A stretch of 64,000 nt of DNA from Verrucomicrobiota bacterium (GCA_043775015.1 JAYVSV010000003.1:3930-67929), one strand, 5' to 3'; positions 9,615 through 60,452 are shown, counted from the first letter of the stretch. Program-made: numbers and translations. The notes: generated by a model from the letters alone, not told the origin.

Positions 9615-11945
9615 ATGAAAAATAAAGATTTATTGATCGCGGCTCCGTTGGCTCTTTTCCTTTCTGCCGCTTCCTTGATTGCAGCGCCGGCGCACGGCTG
9701 GCTCAGTTGGCGCGGGCCGCAACAGAATGGGATGTCGTTGGAAAAAAATCTTCCGGACAAGATCGACGTGAACAAACCGTTGTGGGTCGCTGATTTTCCC
9801 GGTCAATCCACGCCGGTCATCGCCAACGGCAAAGTTTACATCATGGGTTATCTCGGAAGCGGCCCGGATTTGCAGGAAGGAGTCGCCTGTTTCGATGCCG
9901 AGACTGGAAAAAAACTTTGGGAAAAGCGCTACAACGATTTTCTGAGCGACACGATTTATCTGCGCTACGCGACATCGAGTCCGGCGGTTGATCCTGAAAC
10001 GGGCAATGTTTATATGCAAGGCACGCAGGGAATTTTGGCCGCGCTGACCAGCGACGGGAAATTGCTCTGGCAACATTCGCTGATGGAAGAATTTGGCCGT
10101 CTCACTTTTCCCAACAGCCGCACGGCTTCACCGGTAATCGACGGCGATCTCGTCATCACTCGTGGCATCACGGCCAACTGGGGCGCGCAAGGTCCGGCGG
10201 GCGATCGTTTTTATGCCTTCGATAAAAAGACGGGCCAACTCGTCTGGTCGTCCACTCCCGGCGGGCCGCCCAAGGACAATTCATTTTCCCATCCCTACTT
10301 GACGTTCCTCGGCGGCAAACGCGTTTTCTATTCCGCCACCGGCGATGGCAGTGTCGTTTGCGTCAATGCGCGGACCGGCGAACCGATCTGGCGCGTCCCG
10401 ATTTTTAAAGCCGGCATCAACGCGACGTTGCTTGTTCATAATGACGACAAAATCATCGCGATTTACGGGACGCCTTATGAACCGGGGCAAATGGTTGCGC
10501 TGAAAATTCCCAGCGTCACCCCGACAAACGCAGCGAGTGCGCCGGTCGTCGTCGAGCGCGCTTCAGCGCAACTTTGGGCGAACGAACTTTCCACCTCCGC
10601 GAGTTCGCCCATTTTGGTCGGCGATAAAATTTATGTCGTGACGGAAAAGGGCGATCTCAACTCGGTGGATGCGAATACCGGGAAAATTCTCTGGCACATG
10701 AAAATCGGAATCGAGCAACGCAACGCCGCGTTGACCTTCGCCGATGGAAAACTTTACGTGCCGATGCTCGACGATCCCGCGACGAAAACCGGCGGTGGCG
10801 AAGCAGGAACAACCGGTGCGTTTTACATCATTCAACCGGGCGACACGGAGGGAAAAATCCTGGCGCATGTCGCGTTGGACGGACGCTGTTTCGGAACACC
10901 GACGGCTTACAATGGAAAAGTTTATGTGCAAACCACGCGCCATCTTTATGCGTTCGGAAAAAAGGGAGACAACTCTGGTTTGCCTGCCGAACCCACTGTT
11001 GAAAAATGGCCGACCGCAGGACCCGCCCAGCAACTCCAGATTATTCCTTCTGAAGTCTTGATGCGTCCTACACAAACGGAGTCGTTCCGCGTTCGCTCAC
11101 TCGATGCCAACGGATTTCTCGTTCAGGAAATCAAAGATGTGCAATCTGTGAAATGGGCTTCGTTCATCCCGCCAACCGCGAAAGTGAAATCGACCATGAA
11201 CGCGACTTTCAACACGAACGGCGAACTCGTAGCCGCGACCAACTCCACTCCGTCCGCTGGCGCATTCGAAGCGACCGTTGGCAATTTGAAGGGTTACATT
11301 CGCGGTCGCATTTTGCCTTACCTGCCGATCAAACAGGACTTTGAATGGGCGAACCTTTCTGAAACCACCACCAACGAGGTCGAGGAGCCAACGAAGTTTG
11401 CCTACCCGCCGCTGCCGTGGATTGGCGCGCGTTTCAAATTTGAAATTCGCGACAAGGATGGAACCAAAGCACTAACCAAAACGATCGACAACACCTTTTT
11501 CCAACGCGGCACCGTTTTTCTCGGTGAACCGAATACAAAAAATTACACGATTGAAGCCGACGTGATGAGCGAAGGAAACAAACGCAAAATGTCCGACGTC
11601 GGCATCATCTGTCAGCGCTATTTGATCGTGATGAAAGGGAACGAGCAGAAGCTTGAAATCAATTCCAACCTCGAACGGTTGCGGGTTCCCGCCGCCGAGG
11701 AACCGCCGAATTTTCCCTGGGCGGCCAACGTCTGGTATCACTTGAAAGCGCGCGTGGACACAGCCAAAGACGGCTCGGGCGTGGTTCGCGCAAAAGCTTG
11801 GAAACGCGGCGAACCGGAGCCGGAGAAGTGGTCGGCAGAAGTCGCGCACAAAACCGCGCACCAAAACGGTTCGCCCGGCCTGTTTGGATTTTCTCCGCAA
11901 AAAATGCGGGTGTTTATTGATAATGTTACCGTGACAGCAAATTAA
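9615..11945 (+). CDS. secreted PQQ-like (BamB-type) beta-propeller protein with C-terminal ConA-like/DUF1080-like domain
   Basis: ATG 9615 follows AAAAGG and gives a signal peptide. WLSWRGPQQNG and repeated G-K-[IVL]-Y / DG-x-L-W blades. C-terminal jelly-roll-like segment. Confidence 0.7.
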   Translation: MKNKDLLIAAPLALFLSAASLIAAPAHGWLSWRGPQQNGMSLEKNLPDKIDVNKPLWVADFPGQSTPVIANGKVYIMGYLGSGPDLQEGVACFDAETGKKLWEKRYNDFLSDTIYLRYATSSPAVDPETGNVYMQGTQGILAALTSDGKLLWQHSLMEEFGRLTFPNSRTASPVIDGDLVITRGITANWGAQGPAGDRFYAFDKKTGQLVWSSTPGGPPKDNSFSHPYLTFLGGKRVFYSATGDGSVVCVNARTGEPIWRVPIFKAGINATLLVHNDDKIIAIYGTPYEPGQMVALKIPSVTPTNAASAPVVVERASAQLWANELSTSASSPILVGDKIYVVTEKGDLNSVDANTGKILWHMKIGIEQRNAALTFADGKLYVPMLDDPATKTGGGEAGTTGAFYIIQPGDTEGKILAHVALDGRCFGTPTAYNGKVYVQTTRHLYAFGKKGDNSGLPAEPTVEKWPTAGPAQQLQIIPSEVLMRPTQTESFRVRSLDANGFLVQEIKDVQSVKWASFIPPTAKVKSTMNATFNTNGELVAATNSTPSAGAFEATVGNLKGYIRGRILPYLPIKQDFEWANLSETTTNEVEEPTKFAYPPLPWIGARFKFEIRDKDGTKALTKTIDNTFFQRGTVFLGEPNTKNYTIEADVMSEGNKRKMSDVGIICQRYLIVMKGNEQKLEINSNLERLRVPAAEEPPNFPWAANVWYHLKARVDTAKDGSGVVRAKAWKRGEPEPEKWSAEVAHKTAHQNGSPGLFGFSPQKMRVFIDNVTVTAN

Positions 11946-14035: not shown

Positions 14036-15742
14036 ATGCCATCGCTGCCTCGATTAACCCGTACACAATGGCTCATCTGCATTATCGCGGCCATCGGATT
14101 TTTATTCGATACCTACGAGCTTCTGATGACGCCGCTCGTTGGGGTTCCCGCGATTGCTGAATTGCTGCAAGTGCCGCCGAACAATCCGCTCGTGACCGAG
14201 TGGATGGGAAAAATGCTTTGGATGAGCGCGCTGTGTGGAGGCGTGTTTGGTTTGCTCGGCGGTTGGCTGATTGATCGTTTCGGTCGCAAACGCATCATGG
14301 CGTTGAGCATTTTTGTTTATTCACTTTCGCCGGTTGCGGCTGCGTTGAGCACCACGTTGCCCATGTTTATTTTTTTTCGTTGCACGACTTTTATCGGCGT
14401 CTGCGTCGAGTTCGTCGCGGCGATTACCTGGCTGGCGGAATTGTTTCCTGATCCGCGCCGCAGGAAAATTATTCTCGGAACCACACAGGCATTCGCTTCG
14501 TTAGGCGGCATTCTAGTTACTTTGGTGAGTGCCTGGATCGTTGCGAACGCCAACTCCCTCCCTGCCCTGCATCTGCCGGAAATTTTCAACGCTCACGCAA
14601 CCTGGCGCTACACCCTTTTTACGGGATTACTTCCCGCGATTCCAATTGCGTTGCTGTTGCCGTTCGTTCCTGAATCGCAAATCTGGCGAGAGAGGCGCGA
14701 AGCCGGAACTTTGAAGCGTCCCAGTTTTGGAGAATTGTTTTCGCCAGCATTGCGTCGCGCCACCATCGTCACGGCGCTGCTTTCGGCCTGCGCGTATGCT
14801 GCAGCTTTCGGCGCGTTGCAATTAACTCCGTTGCGCATCGCGCCCGGTTTGCCGGAACTTGCTGAACAACGCAAAGGGCTGAAGCCGTTGCAAGACGAGG
14901 CAAAAAATCTGAACCAACAACTCACTGCGGCGATGCCCGCGTTCGAGCAAGCGACCAAAGAAATTCCCGGACTGGCTGAAGTCGCCGCGCAACGAGCCAA
15001 AACGCGCATCGCGATGCGCACTCCGAAAAAGATGGTCGATGATCCTGCTGCAACTGATTCCCAAAAGGCTGCTGCCAAAATACAACTCGCGTCGCTCTCC
15101 ACTCGCATCGGCCAACTCGACACGAACCTGACGCAACTGACCGTCGAGAAACCCGAAGCAAAACAAGCCATCATTGCCCGCGAGAAAATTTTGAAACAGC
15201 TCGGTGACAATCGCGAGCTACAAGAACCGCTCGACCGAAAAATCAAGGAGGTCGGCAACAAGATGCAAGGCTTCCAGGAAACAGGTGGATTGATTGGTCG
15301 CATTTCGCTTGCGATTCTGCTGCTTGTCGCAATTTCGCATCGTGCCTTGCTCCGCATTTTTATCGTGCCCGGACTGTTGATGTTTCCCGTCACGTATTGG
15401 ATGCTTTACCACACCTCCGCGCCGGCCATGCAGTGGGGAATTTTCTTTTGCGGGCTACTGGTCGTAGCCCAATTCAGTTACTTCGGCGAATATTTGCCCA
15501 AAATTTTCCCGCTGCATTTGCGCGGGACGGGCGGGAGTTTTGCGACGAACGTGGGCGGTCGAATGATTGGAACGTCCGCCGCATTTCTAACCACCAACCT
15601 GCTCGCTCCGAAAATGAATGCGACTCTGACCTTCGACCAGATCGCAATGGCAGCCGGAATTGTTGGGACGACTGTTTTCGTCCTCGCGCTGATTTTAAGT
15701 TTCTTTCTGCCCGAACCAAAAGTGGAACCTTCAGAGCAGTAA
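14036..15742 (+). CDS. MFS transporter with ~150-aa helical insertion between predicted TM7 and TM8
   Basis: GWLIDRFGRKRIM (MFS motif A), about 12 hydrophobic segments, and a hydrophilic heptad-like block at residues ~266-416. Confidence 0.75.
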   Translation: MPSLPRLTRTQWLICIIAAIGFLFDTYELLMTPLVGVPAIAELLQVPPNNPLVTEWMGKMLWMSALCGGVFGLLGGWLIDRFGRKRIMALSIFVYSLSPVAAALSTTLPMFIFFRCTTFIGVCVEFVAAITWLAELFPDPRRRKIILGTTQAFASLGGILVTLVSAWIVANANSLPALHLPEIFNAHATWRYTLFTGLLPAIPIALLLPFVPESQIWRERREAGTLKRPSFGELFSPALRRATIVTALLSACAYAAAFGALQLTPLRIAPGLPELAEQRKGLKPLQDEAKNLNQQLTAAMPAFEQATKEIPGLAEVAAQRAKTRIAMRTPKKMVDDPAATDSQKAAAKIQLASLSTRIGQLDTNLTQLTVEKPEAKQAIIAREKILKQLGDNRELQEPLDRKIKEVGNKMQGFQETGGLIGRISLAILLLVAISHRALLRIFIVPGLLMFPVTYWMLYHTSAPAMQWGIFFCGLLVVAQFSYFGEYLPKIFPLHLRGTGGSFATNVGGRMIGTSAAFLTTNLLAPKMNATLTFDQIAMAAGIVGTTVFVLALILSFFLPEPKVEPSEQ

Positions 15743-17385: not shown

Positions 17386-18822
17386 ATGACTCAACTCCCT
17401 CACATTCCCGTTCTCCGTCGCGGCAAAGCCTACGAAAGCCTCGACAAGATAAATATCACGAATCATCGCACCGGCGAAACGATGGCACAAGTCAGCACCG
17501 TCAACGCGGGAATTATTCGCAAAGATTTGCAACGGATCGGTGAATCTCGCGCGGCGGTGAAGAAGTTTTCCGTCGCGCAGCTCATCGAGATTTCGGCCAA
17601 GGCGGGCGATCTTTTCCTGAATGGCACCCTGCCCTTTGGCGACAAGGGCCACACGCAATCACCACAGGAATATATTGAGACGCTTTCGTCCACGAGCGGG
17701 CTGCCGCATGTGATGGTCCGGCGCAACATGCAGAAGGTTCATCACGCGCTGACGAATTTGAAAACGGTTTTGAATGGTTTGACGCGCGGGCTGGATCTCT
17801 CGATCCTCGACAGCGGTTTTGGCGAGCAGTTTGGGACAAAGCTCAGTTTCTTTCCCACCACGCAAGCGCTCGGCCTCGTCATGCCGAGCAATTCACCCGC
17901 AGTCAATTCACTCTGGCTTCCGGCGATTGCGCTGAAAATTCCGGTCATCATCAAACCGGGAAAAGAAGAGCCGTGGACGCCGTATCGTTTGATTCAGGCA
18001 TTCATCGCGGCAGGTTGCCCAGCGGAGGCGTTTGGATTTTATCCGACTGATCATGAAGGCGCGGGTGAAATTTTAAAAAGCTGCGGACGCGCTCTGATTT
18101 TCGGCGACAAAAATACGACAGCACAATATGCGAGCAATCCGGCGATCCAGGTTCATGGCCCGGGCTGGAGCAAGATTCTCATCGGCGACGATTGCATTGA
18201 AAATTGGCGCGACTATTTGGACGTGATGGTTTCATCCATATCCGACAACGGCGGGCGCAGTTGCATCAACGCTTCGGCCATCGTGGTTCCAAAATACGCG
18301 GCAGAGATTGCGGATGCATTGGCGCAAAAACTTGGGCCGATTCAACCGACAAAACCGGATGATGAAAATGCGAAACTCTCCGGCTTTGCGAATGTGAAAA
18401 TGGCGGAGTTCATCGAGGCGCAAATTGAGGATGGATTGAAAACTTCAGGCGCGACTGACGCGACGGCGAAATATCGCAACGGCTCGCGCAAGATCGAATT
18501 CGACGGTGGAACCTACATGCGGCCAACCATCGTGTTGTGCGACTCGTTTGCTCACCCGCTGTCCAACAAGGAATTTCTTTGTCCCTACGCCAGCGTCGTT
18601 CAAATTCCGCAAGCCGAGATGCTGAAACAAATTGGTTACTCTCTCGCGGTCACCGCGATTACGAAGGACAAGAATTTTATCGAACAACTGACGGAGTTTC
18701 CACACATCGAGCGATTGAACATCGGCCCGATTTCCACGATGAAAATTTCCTGGGATCAACCGCACGAGGGCAACATGTTCGAGTTTCTCTACAAACGGCG
18801 AAGTATCGAACGCGCAAGTTGA
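17386..18822 (+). CDS. LuxC-like / acylating aldehyde dehydrogenase-family reductase
   Basis: ALDH fold with catalytic Cys context NGGRSCINASAIVV. HGPGWS replaces the ELGGKS general-base motif, as in acylating/acyl-CoA-reductase-type ALDHs. Confidence 0.65.
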   Translation: MTQLPHIPVLRRGKAYESLDKINITNHRTGETMAQVSTVNAGIIRKDLQRIGESRAAVKKFSVAQLIEISAKAGDLFLNGTLPFGDKGHTQSPQEYIETLSSTSGLPHVMVRRNMQKVHHALTNLKTVLNGLTRGLDLSILDSGFGEQFGTKLSFFPTTQALGLVMPSNSPAVNSLWLPAIALKIPVIIKPGKEEPWTPYRLIQAFIAAGCPAEAFGFYPTDHEGAGEILKSCGRALIFGDKNTTAQYASNPAIQVHGPGWSKILIGDDCIENWRDYLDVMVSSISDNGGRSCINASAIVVPKYAAEIADALAQKLGPIQPTKPDDENAKLSGFANVKMAEFIEAQIEDGLKTSGATDATAKYRNGSRKIEFDGGTYMRPTIVLCDSFAHPLSNKEFLCPYASVVQIPQAEMLKQIGYSLAVTAITKDKNFIEQLTEFPHIERLNIGPISTMKISWDQPHEGNMFEFLYKRRSIERAS

Positions 18823-18895
18823 ACCATGTGTTCATGAATGCGATGGAGAATTACAGCGCGTGACACTAGCGTCAAATCTGCTAAGGTAAAACCAG

Positions 18896-19132
18896 ATGAA
18901 AACAGTGCCGACATATAATTTTCCTCAGGACGTTCCCATCTGGGTTGACGCGGAACGATTGAGCGGCGCACCCTGTTTCAAAGGCACGCGCGTGCCGGTG
19001 GACAGCCTTTTCAAAAATCTGGAAAGCGGCCTTAGCCTCGACGAATACCTGGATTGTTTTCCCGACGTGACGCGTGAACAAGCCGTTGCCGTTTTAGAAT
19101 ACGCCCACAAGGCGGCGCTTCAAGCTGCATGA
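18896..19132 (+). CDS. DUF433 domain protein (antitoxin-like)
   Basis: LSGAPCFKGTRVPVDSLFKNLESGLSLDEYLDCFPDVTREQAVAVLEY. Confidence 0.8.
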   Translation: MKTVPTYNFPQDVPIWVDAERLSGAPCFKGTRVPVDSLFKNLESGLSLDEYLDCFPDVTREQAVAVLEYAHKAALQAA

Positions 19133-19446
19133 AGGTTCTGCTGGATGCTTGCGTCCCGCGTCCGTTGCGCAATTTTCTCCTCAGCCACACCGTTCAAACC
19201 GCGCAGGAAATGGGCTGGGGAAAACTGAAAAATGGTGCGTTGCTTCAAGCCGTCGAACCGCAGTTCGACGCGTTTCTCACCAGCGATCTAAACCTCAAAT
19301 ACCAGCAGAACGTTGCTGGGCGAAAACTTGCAATTCTGGTTTTGCCCACCAACGACTGGCCAACGCTCCGGCGCATGACGGATAAAATTGCGGACAAAGT
19401 CGCCACGCTGAAGCCGGGCGATTTTGTTGAAATGCCGATGGAGTAA
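19129..19446 (+). CDS. DUF5615 / PIN-like (Mut7-C-type) protein (toxin-like)
   Basis: MKVLLDACVP...FLTSDLNL acidic motifs. 4-nt ATGA overlap with the DUF433 gene. Confidence 0.7.
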   Translation: MKVLLDACVPRPLRNFLLSHTVQTAQEMGWGKLKNGALLQAVEPQFDAFLTSDLNLKYQQNVAGRKLAILVLPTNDWPTLRRMTDKIADKVATLKPGDFVEMPME

Positions 19447-19449
19447 TTG

Positions 19450-19626
19450 GCAGCCGCGACAAATCGCAAGAAGCGCAAAACATTTATCGAACAATTGACG
19501 GAATTCCCGCACATCGAGCGCCTGAACATCGGCCCGATTTCCACAATGAAAATTTCCTGGGACCAACCGCATGAAGGGAACATGTTCGAGTTTCTTTACA
19601 AGCGTCGTTCGATTGAGCGGGCTTGA
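19450..19626 (+). pseudogene. orphan second copy of the 3' end of the LuxC-like gene
   Basis: 19483-19623 encodes the same 47 aa as 18676-18816 (FIEQLTEFPH...YKRRSIERA), followed by its own TGA. No upstream gene body. Confidence 0.85.
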
Positions 19627-30589: not shown

Positions 30590-31465
30590 TTAAATTACAA
30601 TTTCAGTGCCGATTCCTGCATCAGTGAAAATTTCCAGCAGCACGGAATGTTGAACCCGGCCATCCACAAAAGAAACTTTTTCCACGCCAGCCGTAATCGC
30701 GACAACGGCGCTATCCACCTTTGGAATCATTCCTTTGTCGATCACACCGGTTTTTTTCAATCCGTCCACTTCGGAAATTTGCAGGTGCGAAATCACGGTG
30801 GACGGATCTTTCGGATCACGCATCAAACCTGGAACGTCGCTCATGAAAACAAGTCGTTTCGCCTTCAGCGCGATCGCGACCTGCGCCGCCGCAACATCCG
30901 CATTGCAGTTGTAAATTTTCCCGTCTTCACCGAGTGCGGTTGGACTGATGACCGGTGTGATACCCTGCTTGATACAGGCAAGCAGCGGCGCAGTGTTCAC
31001 TTTAAAAACTTCACCGACGTAACCGATGTCGAGTGGTTGTCCCTGCGAATCTTTGAGAAAAGTTTTTTGACATTTGAAAATTTCTGTTCCAGAGAAACCT
31101 TTGGCCGCGCCGCCGAGGGAATTGATCGTCGCGACAATCTCTGGATTGATTTCAGAAGAAAGAACGTCGTCCACAATCTTCACCGTCGCCTCATCGGTCA
31201 CGCGCTGGCCTTGAATGAAACTGGCTTTCAATCCCGCCGCTTCCATCGCGCGAGTGATTGCTTTGCCGCCGCCGTGAACGACCACCGGATTAATTTCGAC
31301 TGCTTCAAGAAAAACAATGTCGCGCGCCACGCCATTGCGAATCGCCGCGTCCGGGGAATCCATAAAACTTCCGCCGTATTTCACGACGAACGTTTCGCCG
31401 CTGAATTTCTGAATGTAAGGCAACGCTTCAAGCAACGTCGCGGCTTTGGAGATGAGGTCTTGCAT
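30590..31465 (-). CDS. argB: acetylglutamate kinase
   Basis: FVVKYGGSFM, VVVHGGG, NADVAA motifs. Confidence 0.9.
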   Translation of the reverse strand: MQDLISKAATLLEALPYIQKFSGETFVVKYGGSFMDSPDAAIRNGVARDIVFLEAVEINPVVVHGGGKAITRAMEAAGLKASFIQGQRVTDEATVKIVDDVLSSEINPEIVATINSLGGAAKGFSGTEIFKCQKTFLKDSQGQPLDIGYVGEVFKVNTAPLLACIKQGITPVISPTALGEDGKIYNCNADVAAAQVAIALKAKRLVFMSDVPGLMRDPKDPSTVISHLQISEVDGLKKTGVIDKGMIPKVDSAVVAITAGVEKVSFVDGRVQHSVLLEIFTDAGIGTEIVI

Positions 31466-31468
31466 GAG

Positions 31469-31792
31469 TTAAATGAAAAACGAAGCCGGGTTTGCGCGCC
31501 AGTTTTGTGCGCCGTAGATGACACGCAGAATTTCAATCTCTTTTTCCAATCCGCGATAAAAAACCAACCAACGATTGAAAGGTGGTGGCAGGACGCTGAA
31601 GCGAACGCCGGCGAGACGGCGATGTTTCAATCGCGCCATCGGGCCGGATTCAGGAAATTTCGCCAATCGGTCAAACGCTTTGAAGGTTGCGTCCAAAAAA
31701 CACCGTGCTGCTTTCGGATTGTCCGCAAAAATCCAGCGTGCGCCTTCCACCAGGTCATGGTCGGCTTTCGGCTTGGTGCGATAGCCGCTCAT
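31469..31792 (-). CDS. parE: ParE/RelE-fold type II toxin
   Basis: 107 aa. DLVEGARWI...FLDATFKAFDRLAKFPESG...WLVFYR...IEILRVIYGAQN matches the ParE pattern. Confidence 0.8.
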   Translation of the reverse strand: MSGYRTKPKADHDLVEGARWIFADNPKAARCFLDATFKAFDRLAKFPESGPMARLKHRRLAGVRFSVLPPPFNRWLVFYRGLEKEIEILRVIYGAQNWRANPASFFI

Positions 31793-32055
31793 TTCACTTT
31801 CAGTGCCTGATGATAAATGCGTTTCTTACGTTCATCCGTCATCCGCACGCTCTCGCCGCTGTCCAATCCTTCCAGCAACAGCTCTTCCAAATCTTCGCGC
31901 CCATTCACCGAACACCCGCGAGGTCCGGCGTTGCGTTCGAGCGCATCGGCCAGCCGCAACGAATGGCGGATCACTTCACCTTCGTTGGCGAACTGTCCCG
32001 TGGCGATCTGTCGCTGGACGATGCGCTTGTAATAGGGAGTCAATGTTTGGCTCAT
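31789..32055 (-). CDS. parD: ParD-type (RHH, CC2985-like) antitoxin
   Basis: MSQTLTPYYKRIVQRQIATGQFANEGEVIRHSLRL. 4-nt overlap with parE. Confidence 0.7.
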   Translation of the reverse strand: MSQTLTPYYKRIVQRQIATGQFANEGEVIRHSLRLADALERNAGPRGCSVNGREDLEELLLEGLDSGESVRMTDERKKRIYHQALKVK

Positions 32056-32198
32056 ACGGAAGAAATTTCTATCCATCGCCAATGGGAGTCAAGCGTCCGA
32101 AGCGGCCCGTATTTCACGACAAATATTTCGCCACTGAATTTCTGGATGTAAAGCAACGCTTCGAGCAACGTTGCGGCTTTGGAGATGAGGTCGTGCAT
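32052..32198 (-). pseudogene. orphan 5' fragment of argB (31 homologous codons, then an out-of-context tail)
   Basis: MHDLISKAATLLEALLYIQKFSGEIFVVKYG versus argB MQDLISKAATLLEALPYIQKFSGETFVVKYG. The 48-aa ORF ends in a TGA that overlaps the parD ATG (ATGA). Confidence 0.85.
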
Positions 32199-32203
32199 GT
32201 CGA

Positions 32204-53607: not shown

Positions 53608-54030
53608 TTACATGGTTTCCTTTTCGGAAAGTTCCAACAATTTCTTAAACTGAACCTCATTCAAAGGTGTGACCGACAAACGCGACTGACGCACCAACGG
53701 AATATCTTTCAAAACCTTATCCGACTTGATGGTTTCCAGCGTGACAGGCGTTTTTAATTTTTTTCCGGGAACCAGATCGACGCACGACCAATCGCCTTCC
53801 TTCGCGGTTGGGTCTGCATAAAACCCTTTCTCCACGGTGGCAATTCCGACCACCTGTTTCTCGCTGACACTGTGGTAAAACAAAACCAGGTCGCCGCGCT
53901 TCATTGCCCGCAGGTTATTTCGCGCCTGAAAATTGCGCACGCCGGTCCAGACGGTTTTTCCATCCTTCACCAAGTCGGACCACGAGTAAGCTTCCGGTTC
54001 CGATTTCACGAGCCAATAGTTCTTTGCCAT
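53608..54030 (-). CDS. EVE (PUA-like) domain protein
   Basis: YWLVKSEPEAYSWSDL...WTGVRNFQARNNLRAMKRGDLVLFYHS. Confidence 0.85.
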   Translation of the reverse strand: MAKNYWLVKSEPEAYSWSDLVKDGKTVWTGVRNFQARNNLRAMKRGDLVLFYHSVSEKQVVGIATVEKGFYADPTAKEGDWSCVDLVPGKKLKTPVTLETIKSDKVLKDIPLVRQSRLSVTPLNEVQFKKLLELSEKETM

Positions 54031-54100
54031 GCGGAATTTTTAGTTCCAATGAATCAAAGCGAAAGAAAAAAGGCGGACAAAAGACGAGACGCAAATTTTA

Positions 54101-54159
54101 CGAATTAACACGAATTCCAAAACATCTTTCCCAATTCGCGTTAATTCGCGCAATTCGCG
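54101..54159. repeat. hairpin plus triple AATTCGCG repeat in a divergent promoter region
   Basis: CGAATTAACACGAATT (54101-54116) pairs with AATTCGCGTTAATTCG (54133-54148) with 1 mismatch. AATTCGCG occurs three times in 54133-54159. Confidence 0.75.
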
Positions 54160-54172
54160 TTCTTCCCTCGTG

Positions 54173-54299
54173 CTGATTGCACTTGCGGCTCTCCGCATTC
54201 TGCGAGAAACAAGGGCGAGTGAATATCGAAAAGAAATTCCGGCGCGGAGTGCTCGGTTCCGGCAAAGGGTCGAATTTCGTCGCGATCTCGGAGCCTTGC
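54173..54299 (+). pseudogene. duplicated purN 5' region (leader plus first ~27 codons), fused in frame to the DUF1553-family gene
   Basis: 127 nt aligns gap-free with 58694-58820 (12 mismatches). VNIEKKFRRGVLGSGKGSNFVAISEPC versus purN VNNEKKFRLGVLGSGKGSNFVAIAEAC. Confidence 0.85.
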
Positions 54300-57083
54300 A
54301 TCAAGAAGCATCACCCCTGCATCACGCTTCCACTTTGGCTTGTTCTTTTCGCACTCTTGTCGTTCGCGCTGACGGCTCGGCTTGATGCCGGCGTGGACTA
54401 CGTCAAAAGCGTTAAACCACTGTTGAAGGAGCGATGCTACGCGTGCCACGGGGCACTCAAACAAAAGGCCCGACTGCGGCTCGACACGGTCGAGTTGATG
54501 CTCCAAGGAGGCAAATCTGGTGCGGCCTTCACGCGCGGGAAACCGGAGGAAAGCCTCATCATTCAACGCGTGACTGCGCCCGACATGGAAGAGCGCATGC
54601 CGCCCGAACACGAAGGCGAGCCGTTCACCCCGGCGCAGGTTGCGCTGCTCCAAGAGTGGATCGTCACAGGTGCTTCCTCTCCGGCGGATGAAAGGGCCGA
54701 GACAGACCCGAAGGAACATTGGGCCTTCCGCCAACGGATGCGTCCGCCGGTTCCGGCAGTAGCCAATGCGAAATGGGTGCGCAATCCCATTGATGCCTTC
54801 CTTGCTAAACAGCACGAGGACCACGGCCTCACCCCGCAACCCGAAGCGTCACGGGCGGTTCTCCTGCGCAGGTTGTATCTCGACTTGATCGGTTTGCCGC
54901 CGAGCCTCGCGGAAATCACCGTCTTCGAGAACGACTCATCACCCGATTGGTATGAGCGCGCTGTGAATTATTTGCTCGATGACCCGCGTCACGGGGAACG
55001 CTGGGCGCGGCACTGGATGGACATTTGGCGCTACAGCGATTGGTGGGGCCTCGGCGACCAGCACCGCAACAGCCAGAAACATATTTGGCACTGGCGGGAT
55101 TGGATTGTGGAATCGCTCAACGCAGACACGCCCTACGACGAGATGATCCGCCTCATGCTGGCCGCTGACGAATCGCATCCCAACGACCTCCAGAAACTCC
55201 GCGCCACCGGCTTTCTCGCCCGCAACTGGTTCCTGTTCAATCGCAATCAGTGGATGGATGAAACCGTCGAGCATGTGAGCAAAGGGTTTCTCGGTCTCAC
55301 GGTGAACTGCGCCAAGTGCCACGACCACAAATTCGACCCCATCTCGCAGGTTGATTACTACCGGATGCGCGCGTTTTTTGAGCCGTATCACGTGCGGATG
55401 GACATGCTCCCCGACGAAGTGGATCTCTTACGCGACGGTATTCCCCGCGTCTTCGACGGTCTGCTCGATACTCCCACGTATCGCTTTGTGCGCGGCGACG
55501 AGGGCAAGCCCGACAAATCTGCCGTCATTGCACCCGGCGTTCCCACGCTGTTCGCCTTCACTCAGTTGGACATCCAGCCCATCGCGTTCCCGCCGGAAGC
55601 CTGGCAACCAGAGCGACGCCCCTGGGTTCTCGATGCCCACCTCGCCACGGCCCGGAAGAAAGTGGAGATTGTGGAGAAAGCTCTTACCCCGGCGCGGGAA
55701 AGACTCGCCGCTGCTCAAACGCGCGAGGCAAAAATAGTCGCGACAGCAACTGCGCCTGCTTTGAAGCCGACTTCACCCGACGAGGCCAAGGCCGCAGTCG
55801 CCACCGCGCACGGCGAGCTAAATGTCGCCGAACTGGCCTTGACCGTGGCCACGGCGGAACTCCTGAGCATCGAAAGTAATTGCACAGCAATGCGCGCTGC
55901 GTGGGCAAGGGCCGATGCTGGCCCCAACCAAGCGAGTGCTGCCCTGGCCAAGCTTGAACGCGATGCGACTTCGTCTGCAATACGCGCGGAACGCGAAGTC
56001 GCCGTCGCGAAGGCCCGCCACGCCATTGCCGATGCCGGGCTTCGCCTTGCCAGCCCGACTGACCCCAAGAAAGACGCCATCGAGAAGGAATTGAAAACCG
56101 CCCGCGAGTCCCTCGACACAGCCACCAAAGCCGTGACTGCTCCGATCACGGAGACCAACAAAATCACCCCGCTCTACGGAGCAAAATGGACACCCACTCG
56201 ATTCTTTAATTCGCAAAAAGACGACCCCACCGTCGAGTTCGGCCCCACAAGCAGTGGCCGCCGCACCGCACTCGCCGGCTGGATTACCGACCCACGCAAC
56301 CCGCTCACCGCGCGCGTCGCTGTAAATCACCTCTGGGCGCGTCATCTGGGAACGCCACTCGTATCCACCACGTTTGACTTCGGGCGCAAGAACGGATCAC
56401 CCACGCATACTGAGTTGCTTGATTGGCTGGCGTCTGAGTTGGTGGATCATGGCTGGAGCATGAAACACTTGCACCGGCTGATCGTCACTTCGGCTGCCTA
56501 TCGAATGAATTCGTCGGCAGCGGGCGGTGAATCCAACATGGCGAAGGATCCCGACAACCTGGGCTGGTGGCGGCGCACACCCATCCGCATCGAGGCAGAG
56601 GTGGTGAGGGATTCTATTCTCGCGCTCGCCGACCAACTGGACACAGCCATCGGTGGCCCCTCGGTTCCGACGGCCAGCCAGGCCGACTCGAAACGCCGCA
56701 GCCTTTATTTCTTCCACTCGAACAACGAGCGAAATCTTTTCCTCACCACATTCGACGAAGCCAGTGTGAAGGAATGTTACCGCCGGGAACAGAGCATCGT
56801 CCCGCAGCAGGCGCTTGCTCTTTCTAACAGCGGCCTCGTGCAGGATTGCACCCACCACATCGCCGCCCGTTTCGGCGCAAACGTTCCAGCGAATGACGAC
56901 CCCGCGTTTGTCCGGCAGGCATTTCGCGGCGTGCTCGGCGTTGAACCTCAACGGGCAGAAGTCGCAGCCTGCGTCACGACCATGGACGCCTGGCGCAAGA
57001 TCCCGGACACTACTCACGATCAGGCGCGCTCTCATCTCATCTGGGCACTACTCAACCACAACGATTTTGTCATGCTGCGTTAA
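54219..57083 (+). CDS. PSCyt / DUF1549 / DUF1553 family protein (planctomycete-type cytochrome-c-motif protein)
   Basis: CYACHG heme motif after the signal-like segment LPLWLVLFALLSFALTA. CAKCHDHKFDP. DUF1553-like C-terminus. The only in-frame start codons (GTG 54219, GTG 54249) lie in purN-derived sequence. Confidence 0.75.
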   Translation: MNIEKKFRRGVLGSGKGSNFVAISEPCIKKHHPCITLPLWLVLFALLSFALTARLDAGVDYVKSVKPLLKERCYACHGALKQKARLRLDTVELMLQGGKSGAAFTRGKPEESLIIQRVTAPDMEERMPPEHEGEPFTPAQVALLQEWIVTGASSPADERAETDPKEHWAFRQRMRPPVPAVANAKWVRNPIDAFLAKQHEDHGLTPQPEASRAVLLRRLYLDLIGLPPSLAEITVFENDSSPDWYERAVNYLLDDPRHGERWARHWMDIWRYSDWWGLGDQHRNSQKHIWHWRDWIVESLNADTPYDEMIRLMLAADESHPNDLQKLRATGFLARNWFLFNRNQWMDETVEHVSKGFLGLTVNCAKCHDHKFDPISQVDYYRMRAFFEPYHVRMDMLPDEVDLLRDGIPRVFDGLLDTPTYRFVRGDEGKPDKSAVIAPGVPTLFAFTQLDIQPIAFPPEAWQPERRPWVLDAHLATARKKVEIVEKALTPARERLAAAQTREAKIVATATAPALKPTSPDEAKAAVATAHGELNVAELALTVATAELLSIESNCTAMRAAWARADAGPNQASAALAKLERDATSSAIRAEREVAVAKARHAIADAGLRLASPTDPKKDAIEKELKTARESLDTATKAVTAPITETNKITPLYGAKWTPTRFFNSQKDDPTVEFGPTSSGRRTALAGWITDPRNPLTARVAVNHLWARHLGTPLVSTTFDFGRKNGSPTHTELLDWLASELVDHGWSMKHLHRLIVTSAAYRMNSSAAGGESNMAKDPDNLGWWRRTPIRIEAEVVRDSILALADQLDTAIGGPSVPTASQADSKRRSLYFFHSNNERNLFLTTFDEASVKECYRREQSIVPQQALALSNSGLVQDCTHHIAARFGANVPANDDPAFVRQAFRGVLGVEPQRAEVAACVTTMDAWRKIPDTTHDQARSHLIWALLNHNDFVMLR

Positions 57084-57095
57084 CCATTTCCATTT

Positions 57096-58553
57096 ATGAA
57101 ACCTGGCTTCAACCCACTCCACCACCTCCGCTCGCGCCGAACTTTTCTTGCCGACATGGGCATGGGTTTCACCGGACTCGCACTCGGCGCCATGCTCCAG
57201 CGCGATGGCTACGCCAGTAGCGGCGGGTGGACGCCACCGACCGGCCTGCCGCATTTCGCGCCCAAAGCCAAGAACGTCATCTGGCTCTTCATGAACGGAG
57301 GTGTGAGCCATGTGGAAAGTTTCGACCCCAAACCCATGCTCACCAAGTATGGCGGCAAAACCATCGCGGAGACGCCATTCAAGGACACCCAGGACCCGAA
57401 GAAACTTGCGCTCGAACGGCTGGTGGTGCCCGATGCCAACGGCAACCAGCGCAACACGCTTTATCCGCTGCAAGTCGGTTTCAAAAAATATGGAGAAAGC
57501 GGTATTGAAGTGAGCGACTGGTTCCCGCACATCGCGCAGAACGTGGACAAACTGGCCGTGGTGCGCTCGATGTGGACGACCGACAGCAATCACGGCGCGC
57601 AGACCCAGTTTCACTCCGGACGCCACCAGAATGACGGTGATTTTCCGACGCTCGGCGCCTGGGTCCACTACGGGCTTGGCAGCCTCAACGATAACCTGCC
57701 GCAGTTCATCTCCATTGGTGCCCGCGAATACTGGAACAAACGCGACGGCCATTACCTCGGCCCCGCGCACGACGCCGTGCCACTGCGCATTGATCCGGAC
57801 AACCCGCTCGATTTCGGCAAACCCGAACGCCCATTTTCCGCCGAAGCGCAAACCTTGGGTCTGGATCTCATCCAGAAGCTCAACGGGCTGCGCGGCGTCG
57901 AGTATCCGCAAGACCCCACGATGGCCGCCCGCGTCGCCTCTTATGAGCTGGCTTTCCGCATGCAGCGCTCGGTGCCCGAGGTGCTCGACTTCTCAAGGGA
58001 GACTTCCGAGACCAAGGCCCTTTATGGCATCGACCAGCCGCATTGTCGCGACTTTGCCATGCAACTCCTCGCCGCCCGGCGCTTCGTCGAGCGTGGCGTG
58101 CGCTTCATCCAGATTCAGCACGGCGGCAGCGGCGCGGGCGCCTGGGACGCGCACGGCGGACTCAAGGACAACCACGCCAAAAATTCGCTCGCCGTCGATC
58201 AACCCACCGGCGCTCTGCTCCAGGACCTCGAACGACGCGGTCTGCTCGACGAGACGATTGTCATTTTTGCCACGGAGTTCGGTCGCACGCCTGGTTCGCA
58301 AGGCTCCGACGGGCGGGATCATCACATCTTTGGCTTCTCCGTCTGGATGGCGGGCGGCGGACTCAAACGCGGGGTCGTCCACGGTGCGACTGATGAGATC
58401 GGATTCCACGCCACGGAGAACCGCCACTACGTCACGGACATCCACGCCACCATTCTCCACCAACTCGGCCTCGACTCCCGCCAACTCGAGATCCCAGGCC
58501 GCAAGCGCCTCGAGATTGACCACGGTAAACCGATCCACGAAATCATTGCGTGA
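57096..58553 (+). CDS. DUF1501 (sulfatase-fold) protein with Tat-type signal
   Basis: [20 protein letters not shown] twin-arginine leader, [19 protein letters not shown]...GRDHH. Confidence 0.9.
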
Positions 58554-58739
58554 AGCTTACGATCTCCCTTCCCAAGCAGCGTCAGCGGAAGACCCGCCAA
58601 GAGTGACGAGAGAAGATTGCCGATAGCCAGTCATCTCTTCGCGATCTTCTATCTTCCAGCCTCTGCATTCTGCTGTTTTCCAAATCCGAAACACTGATTC
58701 CGCTTGCGACTGTTCGCATTCTGCGAGAAACAAGGGCTA

Positions 58740-59375
58740 GTGAATAACGAAAAGAAATTCCGGCTCGGCGTGCTCGGTTCCGGCAAAGGGTCGAACTTCG
58801 TCGCGATCGCGGAGGCTTGCGCCGAAGGAAAAATCCCGGCGGAGGTCGCCATTGTCATCAGCGATGTGGCGGAAGCCGGAATTCTGGATCGAGCACGGGA
58901 GCGCGGGTTGCGGGCGGAATTTATTTCGCCCGGAAAATTCCGGACTAAACTCGACGACGATGCGGAACGCGCCTTCATCGACACGTTGCAAAAGGCGCAG
59001 GTTGATTTAATCGTGCTCGCCGGTTTTATGCGGATTCTAAAAGGCGAATTCCTGCGCGTGTTTGCGAATCGGGTCATCAACATCCATCCATCTCTTCTGC
59101 CCGCGTTCCCCGGTTTGGAATCATGGAAACAAGCGCTGGATTACGGCGTGAAATTCACCGGCTGCACCGTTCATTTTGTCGATCAAGGCGTCGATACCGG
59201 GCCGATCATCGCCCAACAAACCGTTCCAATTCTGGCAGGCGATACGCCGGAAAGTTTACATGGGCGCATTCAAAAGGCGGAATGGGAACTTTACCCTGCG
59301 GCAGTCAGGGCTTTGGCGCGCGGAGAAGTTCAAGTGCAAGGACGGCAGACGATCTGGAAAACGGTGGCGGGTTGA
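58740..59375 (+). CDS. purN: phosphoribosylglycinamide formyltransferase
   Basis: GVLGSGKGSNF, VLAGFMRIL, NIHPSLLPAFPG, and D in VDQGVDTGPII. GTG start at 58740. Confidence 0.9.
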   Translation: MNNEKKFRLGVLGSGKGSNFVAIAEACAEGKIPAEVAIVISDVAEAGILDRARERGLRAEFISPGKFRTKLDDDAERAFIDTLQKAQVDLIVLAGFMRILKGEFLRVFANRVINIHPSLLPAFPGLESWKQALDYGVKFTGCTVHFVDQGVDTGPIIAQQTVPILAGDTPESLHGRIQKAEWELYPAAVRALARGEVQVQGRQTIWKTVAG

Positions 59376-59573
59376 AAAGATTCCGCCGATTTTGCCGGGC
59401 GCTTTCCTTGAAAATACTTCGACTCTGCGGATTTCTTAAAACTTCACCGACTTAGCCATTGGAAGAAAAAAGTCGCTTTGCAACGCGGACACTGGCAAAT
59501 GATGGGGCGACGCGCGTGAAGAAGTCAGGCGAACCGTTCCTGCCAGCGTGCAATTTAAGATTCCCAAGTTTGG

Positions 59574-60452
59574 ATGATGAAGAAAAAATTACGTTTTGGC
59601 CTGCCGAAAGGCAGTTTGCAGGAGGCAACCATCGAGAAGATGGCCAAGGCTGGTTACAATATTCAAATCAGCAGCCGCTCCTACGTTCCTTACGTGGATG
59701 ACGACGAATTGGAAATCCGCCTGATTCGCGCGCAGGAAATCAGCCGCTATGTCGAACATGGTTATCTGGACTGCGGCATCACCGGCTACGACTGGGTGCA
59801 GGAGAATAATTCCGATGTGCACGAGGTCGGCGAATTTTTGTTCAGCAAAGCCACCCGGCAACCGGCGCGATGGGTTTTGGCTGTGCCTGAAAATTCTCCG
59901 ATCAAAACGGTTAAAGATTTGGAAGGCAAACGGATTGCGACGGAAGTCGTTAACCTGACAAAAAAATATTTAAGGAAACACGGCGTCAAAGCCGAAGTGG
60001 AATTTTCCTGGGGCGCCACCGAAATGAAGGCGCACGAATTAGTCGATGCGATTGTGGAACTGACGGAAACGGGTTCTTCGTTGCGCGCGAACAAATTGCG
60101 CATCGTCGAAACACTTTTGAGTTCCACGCCGAGGTTGATCGTGAATCACAAGGCATGGAAGGAAACTTGGAAGCGAAGCAAAATCGAGACGCTCGCGTTG
60201 TTGCTCAAAGGTGCGTTGGAGGCCGAGGCAAAAGTTGGTTTGAAGATGAACATTGCGGAGAAAAACATCGCGCGCTTGCTGAAAACTTTGCCCGCCTTGC
60301 GTAATCCAACGATTTCAGCCTTGAGCCAATCAGGATGGGTTGCAGTGGAAACAATTATAGACGAGCATGTCGCTCGCGAAATCATCCCTCAGCTAAAAGC
60401 GGCTGGTGCTGAAGGAATCATTGAATATCCGCTGAACAAAGTAGTATATTAA
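59574..60452 (+). CDS. hisG: ATP phosphoribosyltransferase (long form)
   Basis: [31 protein letters not shown], and a C-terminal regulatory domain. Confidence 0.9.

Follow-up and report, generated by a model that had tools for sequence, protein, structure and literature searches.

Insertion of a foreign DUF1553/DUF1501 gene pair at the duplicated 5′ end of purN, with a probable near-leaderless promoter-plus-start module, in a Verrucomicrobiota genome

Introduction

The e14 element and phage 21 integrate in the icd gene of E. coli with an element-borne duplicate of the icd 3′ end. In the translocatable units of the insertion sequence (IS) IS26, a cassette located between direct copies can leave as a circle with one copy and re-enter at another copy. 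Here, we describe a related arrangement at the purN gene of a Verrucomicrobiota bacterium. It is located in a stretch of 64,000 nucleotides (GCA_043775015.1, JAYVSV010000003.1:3930-67929), hereafter referred to as the window, with positions counted from its first nucleotide, and it consists of a foreign pair of genes of the PSCyt/DUF1553 and DUF1501 families bracketed by two direct copies of the purN 5′ end.

The purN locus shares with the e14 and phage 21 sites in icd the duplication of a gene end, the functional state of the gene, a displaced fragment with scattered differences and the foreign DNA between the copies. However, e14 and phage 21 encode a site-specific integrase and target the 3′ end of the gene, whereas at purN no recombinase was found, the 5′ end is affected and the displaced fragment is predicted to lie in the reading frame of a new protein. 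Unlike the IS26 units, the repeats are fragments of a housekeeping gene and there is no transposase; movement would need host homologous recombination.

Single-crossover (Campbell-type) integration of circular DNA in E. coli leads to duplications of 109–950 bp of the homologous segment (PMC3240628), a range that we take to cover the 93–153 bp of the repeats described here. In both cases, the insert is bracketed by target repeats, a dedicated recombinase is not required and the insertion can be reversed through recombination between the repeats. The differences are that the present case is natural and has been retained in Verrucomicrobiota, that the homologous segment appears to be a promoter-plus-start module used by the cargo and that the circle is putative. 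Arrays of the type VI secretion system and Rhs genes, as well as homology-facilitated illegitimate recombination (PMC3240628; PMC5361080), resemble the purN locus in the use of a conserved gene part as a homologous anchor and in older gene ends pushed downstream as orphans. Homology-facilitated illegitimate recombination typically deletes recipient DNA and leaves a microhomology joint at one end (PMC3240628). It thus couples insertion with a deletion in the recipient, whereas here the target is duplicated and homology is found at both ends; this process was rejected for the purN locus.

The feature that seems unusual here is the apparent use of a displaced promoter-plus-start module, in frame, as the front of a signal peptide, over a time sufficient for trimming to have occurred in sister lineages. 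The locus may serve as a sequence-level example of an acquired gene expressed at once via a duplicated host promoter, start codon and first residues, with the host gene left intact. The fusion, kept in three lineages and trimmed in two of them, provides a small natural series on the N-terminal ballast that a signal peptide would tolerate.

Results

The foreign gene pair between two copies of the purN 5′ end

A repeat search revealed that positions 54173–54299 and 58694–58820 form an ungapped direct repeat of 127 nt, in which 115 of the 127 positions are identical (91%, 12 mismatches) and the copies are spaced 4521 nt apart. Together with the Pfam annotation, this agrees with the preliminary description of the locus, made from the sequence alone, which had reported gapless 127-bp repeats with 12 mismatches around a DUF1553/DUF1501 pair. 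The right copy consists of the 46 nt before the purN GTG (58740) and the first 27 purN codons (−46 to +81). Between the copies lie the PSCyt/DUF1553 gene, the DUF1501 gene and a 140-nt spacer. The left copy, located 188 nt from the start of the divergent EVE-domain gene, is in frame with the DUF1553 open reading frame (ORF); the frame is open from 54177, with an in-frame stop just before. A repeat scan of the whole window found only three direct-repeat families of at least 45 nt, the purN repeat among them; thus, this repeat is not background.

The synteny comparison of EVE–purN adjacency that had been proposed in the preliminary description was made with three related loci (L001, L002 and L003; PurN 85–86% identical). 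All three have the order LysE, EVE (minus strand), purN, hisG, TPR, the EVE gene directly adjoins purN, and the DUF1553/DUF1501 pair is absent at the EVE–purN junction. At their empty site, one purN 5′ end comes after the EVE–purN spacer. In the window, the sequence preceding the left copy can be aligned with the EVE–purN spacer of L002, but the sequence preceding the right copy cannot. The left copy is therefore in the ancestral context, and positions 54300–58693 are the insert. Past 54299, the alignment runs beyond the junction without clear homology between the copies (judged without statistics). The GC content of the gene pair is about 0.60–0.62 and that of the insert 0.60–0.65, as compared with 0.49–0.56 elsewhere in the window, and the insert is the only part of the window above 0.57. 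The GC content at third codon positions (GC3) of the DUF1553 and DUF1501 genes, 0.70 and 0.76, is the highest among 34 ORFs; the other 32 ORFs have values of 0.50–0.67. The DUF1553/DUF1501 pair is a foreign insertion at the purN site.

Our preferred reading, to which we assign a probability of roughly 0.7, is as follows. In a lineage of the Limisphaerales (Verrucomicrobiota), a horizontally acquired PSCyt/DUF1553–DUF1501 pair would have entered purN within its first codons, and the insertion would have duplicated a target segment of 127 bp (−46 to +81, counted from the purN GTG). With the downstream copy, purN would remain complete and have its own core promoter, and the upstream copy, being in frame, would give the DUF1553 gene its promoter, its GTG start at 54219 and an N-terminal extension before the donor signal peptide. 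The insertion would be a Campbell-type single crossover of a circle carrying the cassette and a short purN fragment; by the same route, the repeat-bounded cassette could pop out and re-enter related genomes. The features of the locus are the following.

53608–54030, minus strand: EVE-domain gene (Pfam EVE, E = 3.6e-44), the ancestral left neighbour of purN, adjoining purN in L001, L002 and L003
54031–54172, no strand: ancestral EVE–purN intergenic DNA, aligning to the L002 EVE–purN spacer at 67–78% and not to the DNA upstream of the right copy
54173–54299, plus strand: left (displaced) copy of the putative purN 5′ module, with CTTGCGG (−35-like), AAACAA (−10 region), GTG 54219 and 27 purN-derived codons
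54219–57083, plus strand: chimeric ORF of 954 aa, with 27 purN-derived codons followed by the predicted donor-derived signal peptide and PSCyt1, PSCyt2 and PSD1 domains (Pfam)
54333–54377, plus strand: hydrophobic core of the predicted signal peptide, LWLVLFALLSFALTA, followed by RLDA|GVDY (Kyte–Doolittle)
54300–58693, plus strand: foreign insert of 4394 nt with the DUF1553 body, DUF1501 and the 140-nt tail (GC, GC3, absence from L001–L003)
57096–58553, plus strand: DUF1501 gene (Pfam DUF1501, E = 2.6e-124), with the twin-arginine-like SRRTFL read in the N-terminal translation
58554–58693, no strand: non-coding insert tail, which could not be aligned with its counterpart regions in L161 (see below)
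58694–58820, plus strand: right copy of the putative purN 5′ module, attached to the functional purN (repeat search); it carries only 2 derived changes
58740–59375, plus strand: intact purN (phosphoribosylglycinamide formyltransferase) with a GTG start (Pfam Formyl_trans_N, E = 1.8e-52)
59574–60452: hisG gene, downstream of purN (Pfam)

The intact gene can be assigned to PurN (glycinamide ribonucleotide formyltransferase) by its full-length Formyl_trans_N domain and by hisG downstream, as in relatives; its product is 85–91% identical to PurN of related Limisphaerales metagenome-assembled genomes (MAGs). The genome from which the window derives is itself of the Limisphaerales (Verrucomicrobiota). 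The Pfam domains of the ORF ending at 57083 are PSCyt1, PSCyt2 (DUF1549) and PSD1 (DUF1553), and the matches of the cassette proteins to PF07635, PF07583, PF07587 and PF07394 are all far above the Pfam cut-offs. The translation of the DUF1553 protein contains a CxxCH motif, CYACH. Co-oriented neighbouring DUF1553 and DUF1501 genes are also seen in L163–L167. In the literature collection searched, no paper mentions DUF1553 together with DUF1501.

Over the entire structure, two independent Logan contigs, L162 (SRR22198268) and L170 (SRR23617269), each assembled from a different sequencing run, match the window at 100% identity, which makes an assembly artefact unlikely. Both contigs end at window coordinate 59744, inside hisG, suggesting a strain-variable or repeat-related assembly break.

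The intergenic DNA between EVE and purN contains, at positions 54089–54160, an inverted repeat of 28 nt with 82% complementarity, in which ACGAATT/AATTCGCG is abundant. By eye, L001 and L002 have similar inverted-repeat-like sequences at the corresponding position. The repeat may represent an operator or the hairpin of a repeated element.

The fusion in other lineages and selection on the gene pair

The search for protein homologues covered 5.8 billion proteins. Among the matches listed, P0002 (78%) is the only protein besides the window's own that is more than 76% identical to the DUF1553 protein, and its N-terminus, VNDEKKIQLGPLGSG, is a purN-derived sequence. The more distant homologues among the matches listed (at most 76% identity) have their own M or V start, and none of them has a purN-like N-terminus; the three closest of these, P0003, P0005 and P0007, are in ordinary contexts. 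A scan of metagenome contigs seeded with the chimeric N-terminus gave, among the matches listed, only ordinary purN N-termini.

The contig of P0002, L161, contains EVE (minus strand), a copy of the purN 5′ module (377–470), the fused DUF1553 gene, DUF1501, four minus-strand genes and the real purN, where the second repeat copy is located (11222–11315; 94 nt, 79% identical). The left boundary of the repeat in L161 is the same base as in the window, ACTGATT at −46. The third fused lineage, L168, was found via its DUF1501 (93% identical) and has the same head of EVE (minus strand), purN′–DUF1553 and DUF1501; this contig ends before purN. The DUF1501 proteins of L161 and L168 are 92–93% identical to that of the window. 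These are the only two close orthologues of the pair; both are at the same site, and both begin with VNDEKK. Relatives carrying the pair with an independent start and no purN homology upstream had been considered as evidence against a start on purN sequence; L161 and L168 also begin on purN sequence.

Compared with the window, L161 and L168 are without 57 nt (19 codons, beginning KGSNFVAISEPCIKKHHPC). The gap is in frame, spans the original junction and shortens the extension; ATC 54300, possibly a relic of a donor ATG, and the codons around it are deleted, and the second GTG (54249) is not conserved. Before the hydrophobic core, all three lineages have only two canonical starts in common, namely the purN GTG and a TTG located within the −35-like element. 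The frame is open in all three lineages, with no frameshift or stop in the purN-derived part. The trimming in L161 and L168 would fit selection for a shorter extension.

The ratio of non-synonymous to synonymous substitution rates (dN/dS) between the window and L161/L168 is 0.17 for DUF1553 and 0.075 for DUF1501. Judging by these low values, both cassette genes are under purifying selection and functional since the fusion, and so they must be translated from this start region.

The four extra minus-strand genes between DUF1501 and purN in L161 (4703–11221) have a GC content of about 0.54–0.63 and comprise an N_methyl/DUF1559-like gene, a CBM35-GH26 glycoside hydrolase and two paralogous ORFs (64% identical protein) without a Pfam match. 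The four genes may have been lost in the window or gained in L161; the spacers of the window and L161 do not align. The contig L004 (JBBQAX010000145.1), from the MAG with the closest PurN (91%), breaks off at purN codon 15, within the stretch duplicated in the window, possibly because the assembly broke at a repeat. The parDE–argB structure described below (L251) is found in this MAG too. No close DUF1501 orthologue from the MAG of L004 was present among the protein search results.

The promoter-plus-start module and the start codon

For analysis of the promoter geometry, 69 purN loci of relatives were anchored on the start codon. CTTG occurs at −37 or −36 in 44 of the 69 loci; T is enriched at −42, −41 and −12, and A at −11 and −8. 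The start codon is GTG in 57/69 loci. There is no conserved Shine–Dalgarno sequence among the 69 loci, and positions −6 to −1 are not Shine–Dalgarno-like. Counting from the first base of the start codon, the −35-like element occupies −36 to −31 and the −10-like hexamer −12 to −7; this placement gives the geometry of a promoter with a transcript beginning at the start codon. The repeat starts at −46 and thus holds every conserved promoter position. In all left copies, CTTGCGG and AAACAA (−12 to −7) are preserved, whereas spacer and coding part have drifted.

Leaderless genes have as their accepted in silico signature a TA-like signal some 12 nt before the start (PMC3160421), and for leaderless translation in mycobacteria an ATG or GTG at the 5′ terminus is both necessary and sufficient (PMC4633059). 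The set of purN loci shares with leaderless bacterial genes (PMC3160421; PMC4633059) the −10-like element about 12 nt upstream, ending about 7 nt before the start, the lack of a conserved Shine–Dalgarno sequence and the GTG or ATG start. Unlike in these genes, the local −10 element AAACAA departs from TAnnnT, and the leaderless status of the Limisphaerales genes is putative. A complete promoter-plus-start module of the near-leaderless type is probably present in the duplicated repeat. The 46 nt before the purN start are indeed duplicated, as the preliminary description had stated in calling them the purN leader; judging by the conserved positions, they are less likely to be a 5′ untranslated region than a core promoter, belonging to a gene that is leaderless or nearly so. 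An Rfam search with permissive thresholds over 53900–59500 gave only sub-threshold chance matches, with no known RNA element in the duplicated leader, and a terminator scan found no plus-strand terminator-like site between DUF1501 and purN.

If the mRNA is leaderless, the promoter would be unusable without its start codon; in-frame fusion would then be the natural outcome, with the start at GTG 54219 and not at 54249. The in-frame canonical starts are TTG 54177, TTG 54183, GTG 54219 and GTG 54249. The earlier claim that ATG, GTG and TTG are absent between the purN GTGs and the signal-peptide segment holds in the sense that none occurs after 54249 until TTG 54357, which is itself within the hydrophobic core. 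We infer that translation starts at 54219 and that the mRNA is leaderless.

The purN-derived codons might alternatively be untranslated, with the start at ATC 54300 or TTG 54357 and the left copy serving only as a promoter and 5′ untranslated region. Indeed, ATC 54300, KKHH and the hydrophobic core taken together look like a textbook signal peptide, in which the ATC might be what is left of a donor ATG, and the gene caller behind P0001 also departed from GTG 54219, choosing GTG 54249. However, L161 and L168 have lost the ATC region, and yet the frame from the purN GTG stays open: the deletion is a multiple of three, and the purN-derived part is uninterrupted in three lineages. The loss of the ATC region, along with the lack of conservation of GTG 54249 in L161/L168, argues against a downstream non-canonical start and points to the purN GTG. 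In addition, ATC serves as an initiation-incompetent control codon in reporter assays (PMC4633059), TTG 54357 is in the middle of the hydrophobic core, so that a start there would destroy the signal peptide, and no Shine–Dalgarno-like sequence precedes either codon. We therefore regard a downstream start as highly improbable. The claim that the exported protein must start on purN-derived sequence is supported by this comparison, in view of the fusion in L161/L168 and their shared purN GTG.

The chimeric signal peptide

With the start at GTG 54219, the precursor would have an n-region of 38 residues, composed of 27 purN-derived residues and IKKHHPCITLP. The n-region holds Lys and Arg and is unusually long (38). 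The maximal 11-residue Kyte–Doolittle mean of the hydrophobic core LWLVLFALLSFALTA is 2.87, at LVLFALLSFAL, and LTA|R and LDA|G are candidate cleavage sites. In homologues, the conserved VDY motif is immediately preceded by a hydrophobic stretch at the N-terminus. The CxxCH (haem) motif lies 72 residues from the start in the window (from GTG 54219) and 53 in L161; the median for 120 homologues is 43. The long n-region may still allow Sec export.

The export routes of the two cassette proteins may differ: the DUF1501 protein has a twin-arginine-like motif at its N-terminus (57096–57200), which would suggest a twin-arginine translocation (Tat)-type route, as compared with a Sec-type route for the DUF1553 protein.

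Parallel cassettes at argB and the aldehyde dehydrogenase gene

The purN event has parallels in the window, where three gene-end duplications with cassettes between their copies occur in all: the only two other long direct repeats are also duplications of gene ends around small cassettes.

31374–32199, minus strand: parD/parE cassette (31469–32082) between displaced argB codons 1–31 (32107–32199) and the real argB start (31374–31466); Pfam ParD_antitoxin, ParE_toxin, AA_kinase
18663–19622, plus strand: DUF433 gene and partner ORF (18896–19446) between an aldehyde-dehydrogenase-family 3′ end (18663–18815) and its displaced copy (19470–19622); Pfam DUF433, Aldedh

The argB repeat is 93 nt long and 90% identical. 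The same parDE–argB arrangement, including the displaced argB fragment, is present in L251. In L252, parD and parE are directly upstream of argB, and the contig starts within parD. L309 and L324 have a diverged parD (69–74% identical) upstream of argB, with parE in L324 only (69%); neither parD nor parE was found in L253. When the window is compared with L251 and L252, the level of nucleotide identity is 94–98% for parD, 93% for parE and 90–94% for the first 93 nt of argB, as against 85% for the rest of argB and 84% for the displaced argB copy (L251 only). The recently shared tract thus comprises the cassette and the adjacent repeat. A circle arising through recombination between the repeats would carry exactly this tract and would deliver it through one crossover close to the far end of the homology.

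The aldehyde-dehydrogenase repeat has a length of 153 nt and an identity of 83%. Between its copies are the DUF433 gene (18896–19132) and an overlapping ORF of 105 aa (19129–19446) without a Pfam match. The copies differ by 21 synonymous and 3 non-synonymous codon differences. As most of these differences are synonymous, both copies would have evolved in functional genes, and one of them would have come from another lineage. Both parallel cassettes, then, show signs of exchange between lineages at the level of their sequences.

The only tRNA gene in the window is at 15553–15646, and there is none near the purN insert. It is a tRNA-Lys(TTT) predicted by ARAGORN on the minus strand, unusually long (94 nt) and located inside the mechanical ORF 14036–15742.

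The insertion mechanism

Single-crossover integration is the likeliest insertion route. The repeats copy one contiguous segment of the target, one complete purN is kept, and the empty site of relatives equals one repeat copy. Repeats that are hybrids of donor and recipient are seen at parDE–argB and suggested by the aldehyde-dehydrogenase copies; at purN, there is only the weaker signal from four-fold sites discussed in the next section.

Pfam and tRNA searches found no recombinase, integrase, transposase, phage gene or tRNA in the purN insert, in the 10.8-kb version of it in L161 or in the parallel inserts. The Pfam matches in the inserts of the window and L161 are limited to PSCyt/DUF1553, DUF1501, N_methyl/DUF1559 and CBM35/GH26. 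A search of 2.9 million viral contigs gave no relative of either DUF1501 or ParE.

Insertion by a transposon or IS was rejected: the duplication is 127 bp as compared with 2–14 bp, there are no inverted repeats at the ends of the insert, and there is no transposase.

Diverged gene-end repeats around foreign DNA, with the gene left intact, are also the classic signature of integrase-driven elements, as known for e14 and phage 21 at icd, and the insert is compositionally foreign. The locus might accordingly be read as the remnant of an island or prophage with an attachment site over the purN 5′ end and an element-borne purN copy, the integrase having been lost or acting in trans. However, neither the 4.4-kb insert nor the L161 insert encodes a tyrosine or serine recombinase, and Pfam revealed no excisionase or conjugation gene in either of them. 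The absence of a nearby tRNA and the negative search of viral contigs also speak against such an origin, and the purN 5′, argB 5′ and aldehyde dehydrogenase 3′ targets would need three site specificities. Lacking a recombinase, the locus does not qualify as an integrase-driven island or prophage, and we consider a remnant of such an element very unlikely.

A broader proposal can be put forward tentatively. Limisphaerales may carry integrase-free mobile cassettes, such as toxin–antitoxin pairs and the DUF1553/DUF1501 pair, bounded by 90–150-bp repeats of housekeeping gene ends. They would move as circles composed of the cassette and one repeat, the repeat acting as a homology arm for a single crossover into the same gene end of a related genome, with the host gene left intact each time; at leaderless 5′ ends, the displaced copy would double as the promoter-plus-start module of the cargo. 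The recurrent gene-end duplications without a recombinase, together with the signs of exchange between lineages, suggest homology-driven movement of small cassettes. If this is true, three such structures in one 64-kb window would point to a frequent route of gene gain in the clade. If it is general, it would bear on the spread of accessory genes and toxin–antitoxin modules in uncultured Verrucomicrobiota and on how gene callers treat starts in such chimeras.

Divergence of the repeat copies and exchange between lineages

In the 27 duplicated codons, the left and right copies differ by 4 non-synonymous and 2 synonymous codon differences, exactly the count given in the preliminary description. 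With L001–L003 as outgroups, about 8 of the 12 differences in the whole repeat can be assigned to the left copy as derived changes and 2 to the right copy, where they lie upstream of the GTG. This excess of derived changes in the left copy fits relaxed or altered constraint, and the earlier proposal of relaxed constraint on the fused copy gains support from it.

The identity at four-fold sites between the window and L161/L168 is 0.62–0.70 for the cassette and 0.48–0.50 for purN and EVE. L002, which is without the pair, is closer to the window than L168 is in EVE and in the EVE–purN spacer. One substitution is common to all left copies and absent from all purN copies (GGCTC vs. GGC[G/T]G), and both copies within one genome share lineage-specific states.

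Several observations weigh against the reading preferred here. A sigma-70 consensus scan (E. coli-style) found no promoter, and the −10 element of the window, AAACAA, is a poor match to TAnnnT; the leaderless interpretation thus rests on positional conservation across relatives. The predicted n-region of 38 residues is long, and the haem motif lies 72 residues from the start instead of the median 43 of the 120 homologues. The changes in the left purN copy (4 non-synonymous, 2 synonymous) look like drift and not like a donor allele, so that the hybrid repeat expected from a single crossover is not visible at purN, and the first joining of a purN fragment to the foreign pair is left unexplained by the single-crossover model. 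The left copy of the window is closest to the window's own right copy (115/127) and not to the left copies of L161/L168; a single ancient insertion would then need later gene conversion, or else the cassette entered the lineages separately. Finally, constraint on codon usage could account for part of the lower synonymous divergence seen in the cassette.

Some of the same data can be explained by one ancient, one-step local insertion inherited vertically, with the pair lost through recombination between the repeats in the relatives that are without it and gene conversion from purN holding the left copy of the window close to the right one. Candidate events would be the capture of foreign DNA at a staggered break that was then filled in, or the formation of a small tandem duplication whose junction later received the insert. 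The site and the left boundary of the repeat are the same in the window and L161, the site is shared by L168, and one substitution is common to all left copies. The lineage-specific states shared by both copies in a genome are what gene conversion would give, and loss would be easy, as 127-bp repeats allow precise deletion of the insert. However, target duplications of about 100–150 bp are not known from bacterial end-joining or transposition, and the identity of the cassette at four-fold sites exceeds that of the flanking genes. The position of the pairless L002, nearer to the window than L168 in EVE and the intergenic DNA, is also at odds with vertical inheritance, and the donor-allele signatures in the two parallel cassettes are not predicted by a purely local duplication. 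We consider an ancient local insertion unlikely. The pattern of divergence seems to fit movement of the cassette between related lineages, or gene conversion, better than one ancient vertical insertion, and entry of the cassette by single crossover, as preferred above, would allow for such movement.

A comparison of the window with L002, over positions 58694–60450 and the left flank, gave a mosaic. The level of identity is 86–97% in hisG, 88–90% in the spacer before hisG and 68–93% in purN (68–79% in its 5′ part). In the left flank, it is 61–88% within LysE and EVE and lower over the hyp142 region. No clean boundary of a recombination tract around purN was found in this comparison. Recombination between lineages appears to be frequent around the purN locus, judging by this variation in identity.

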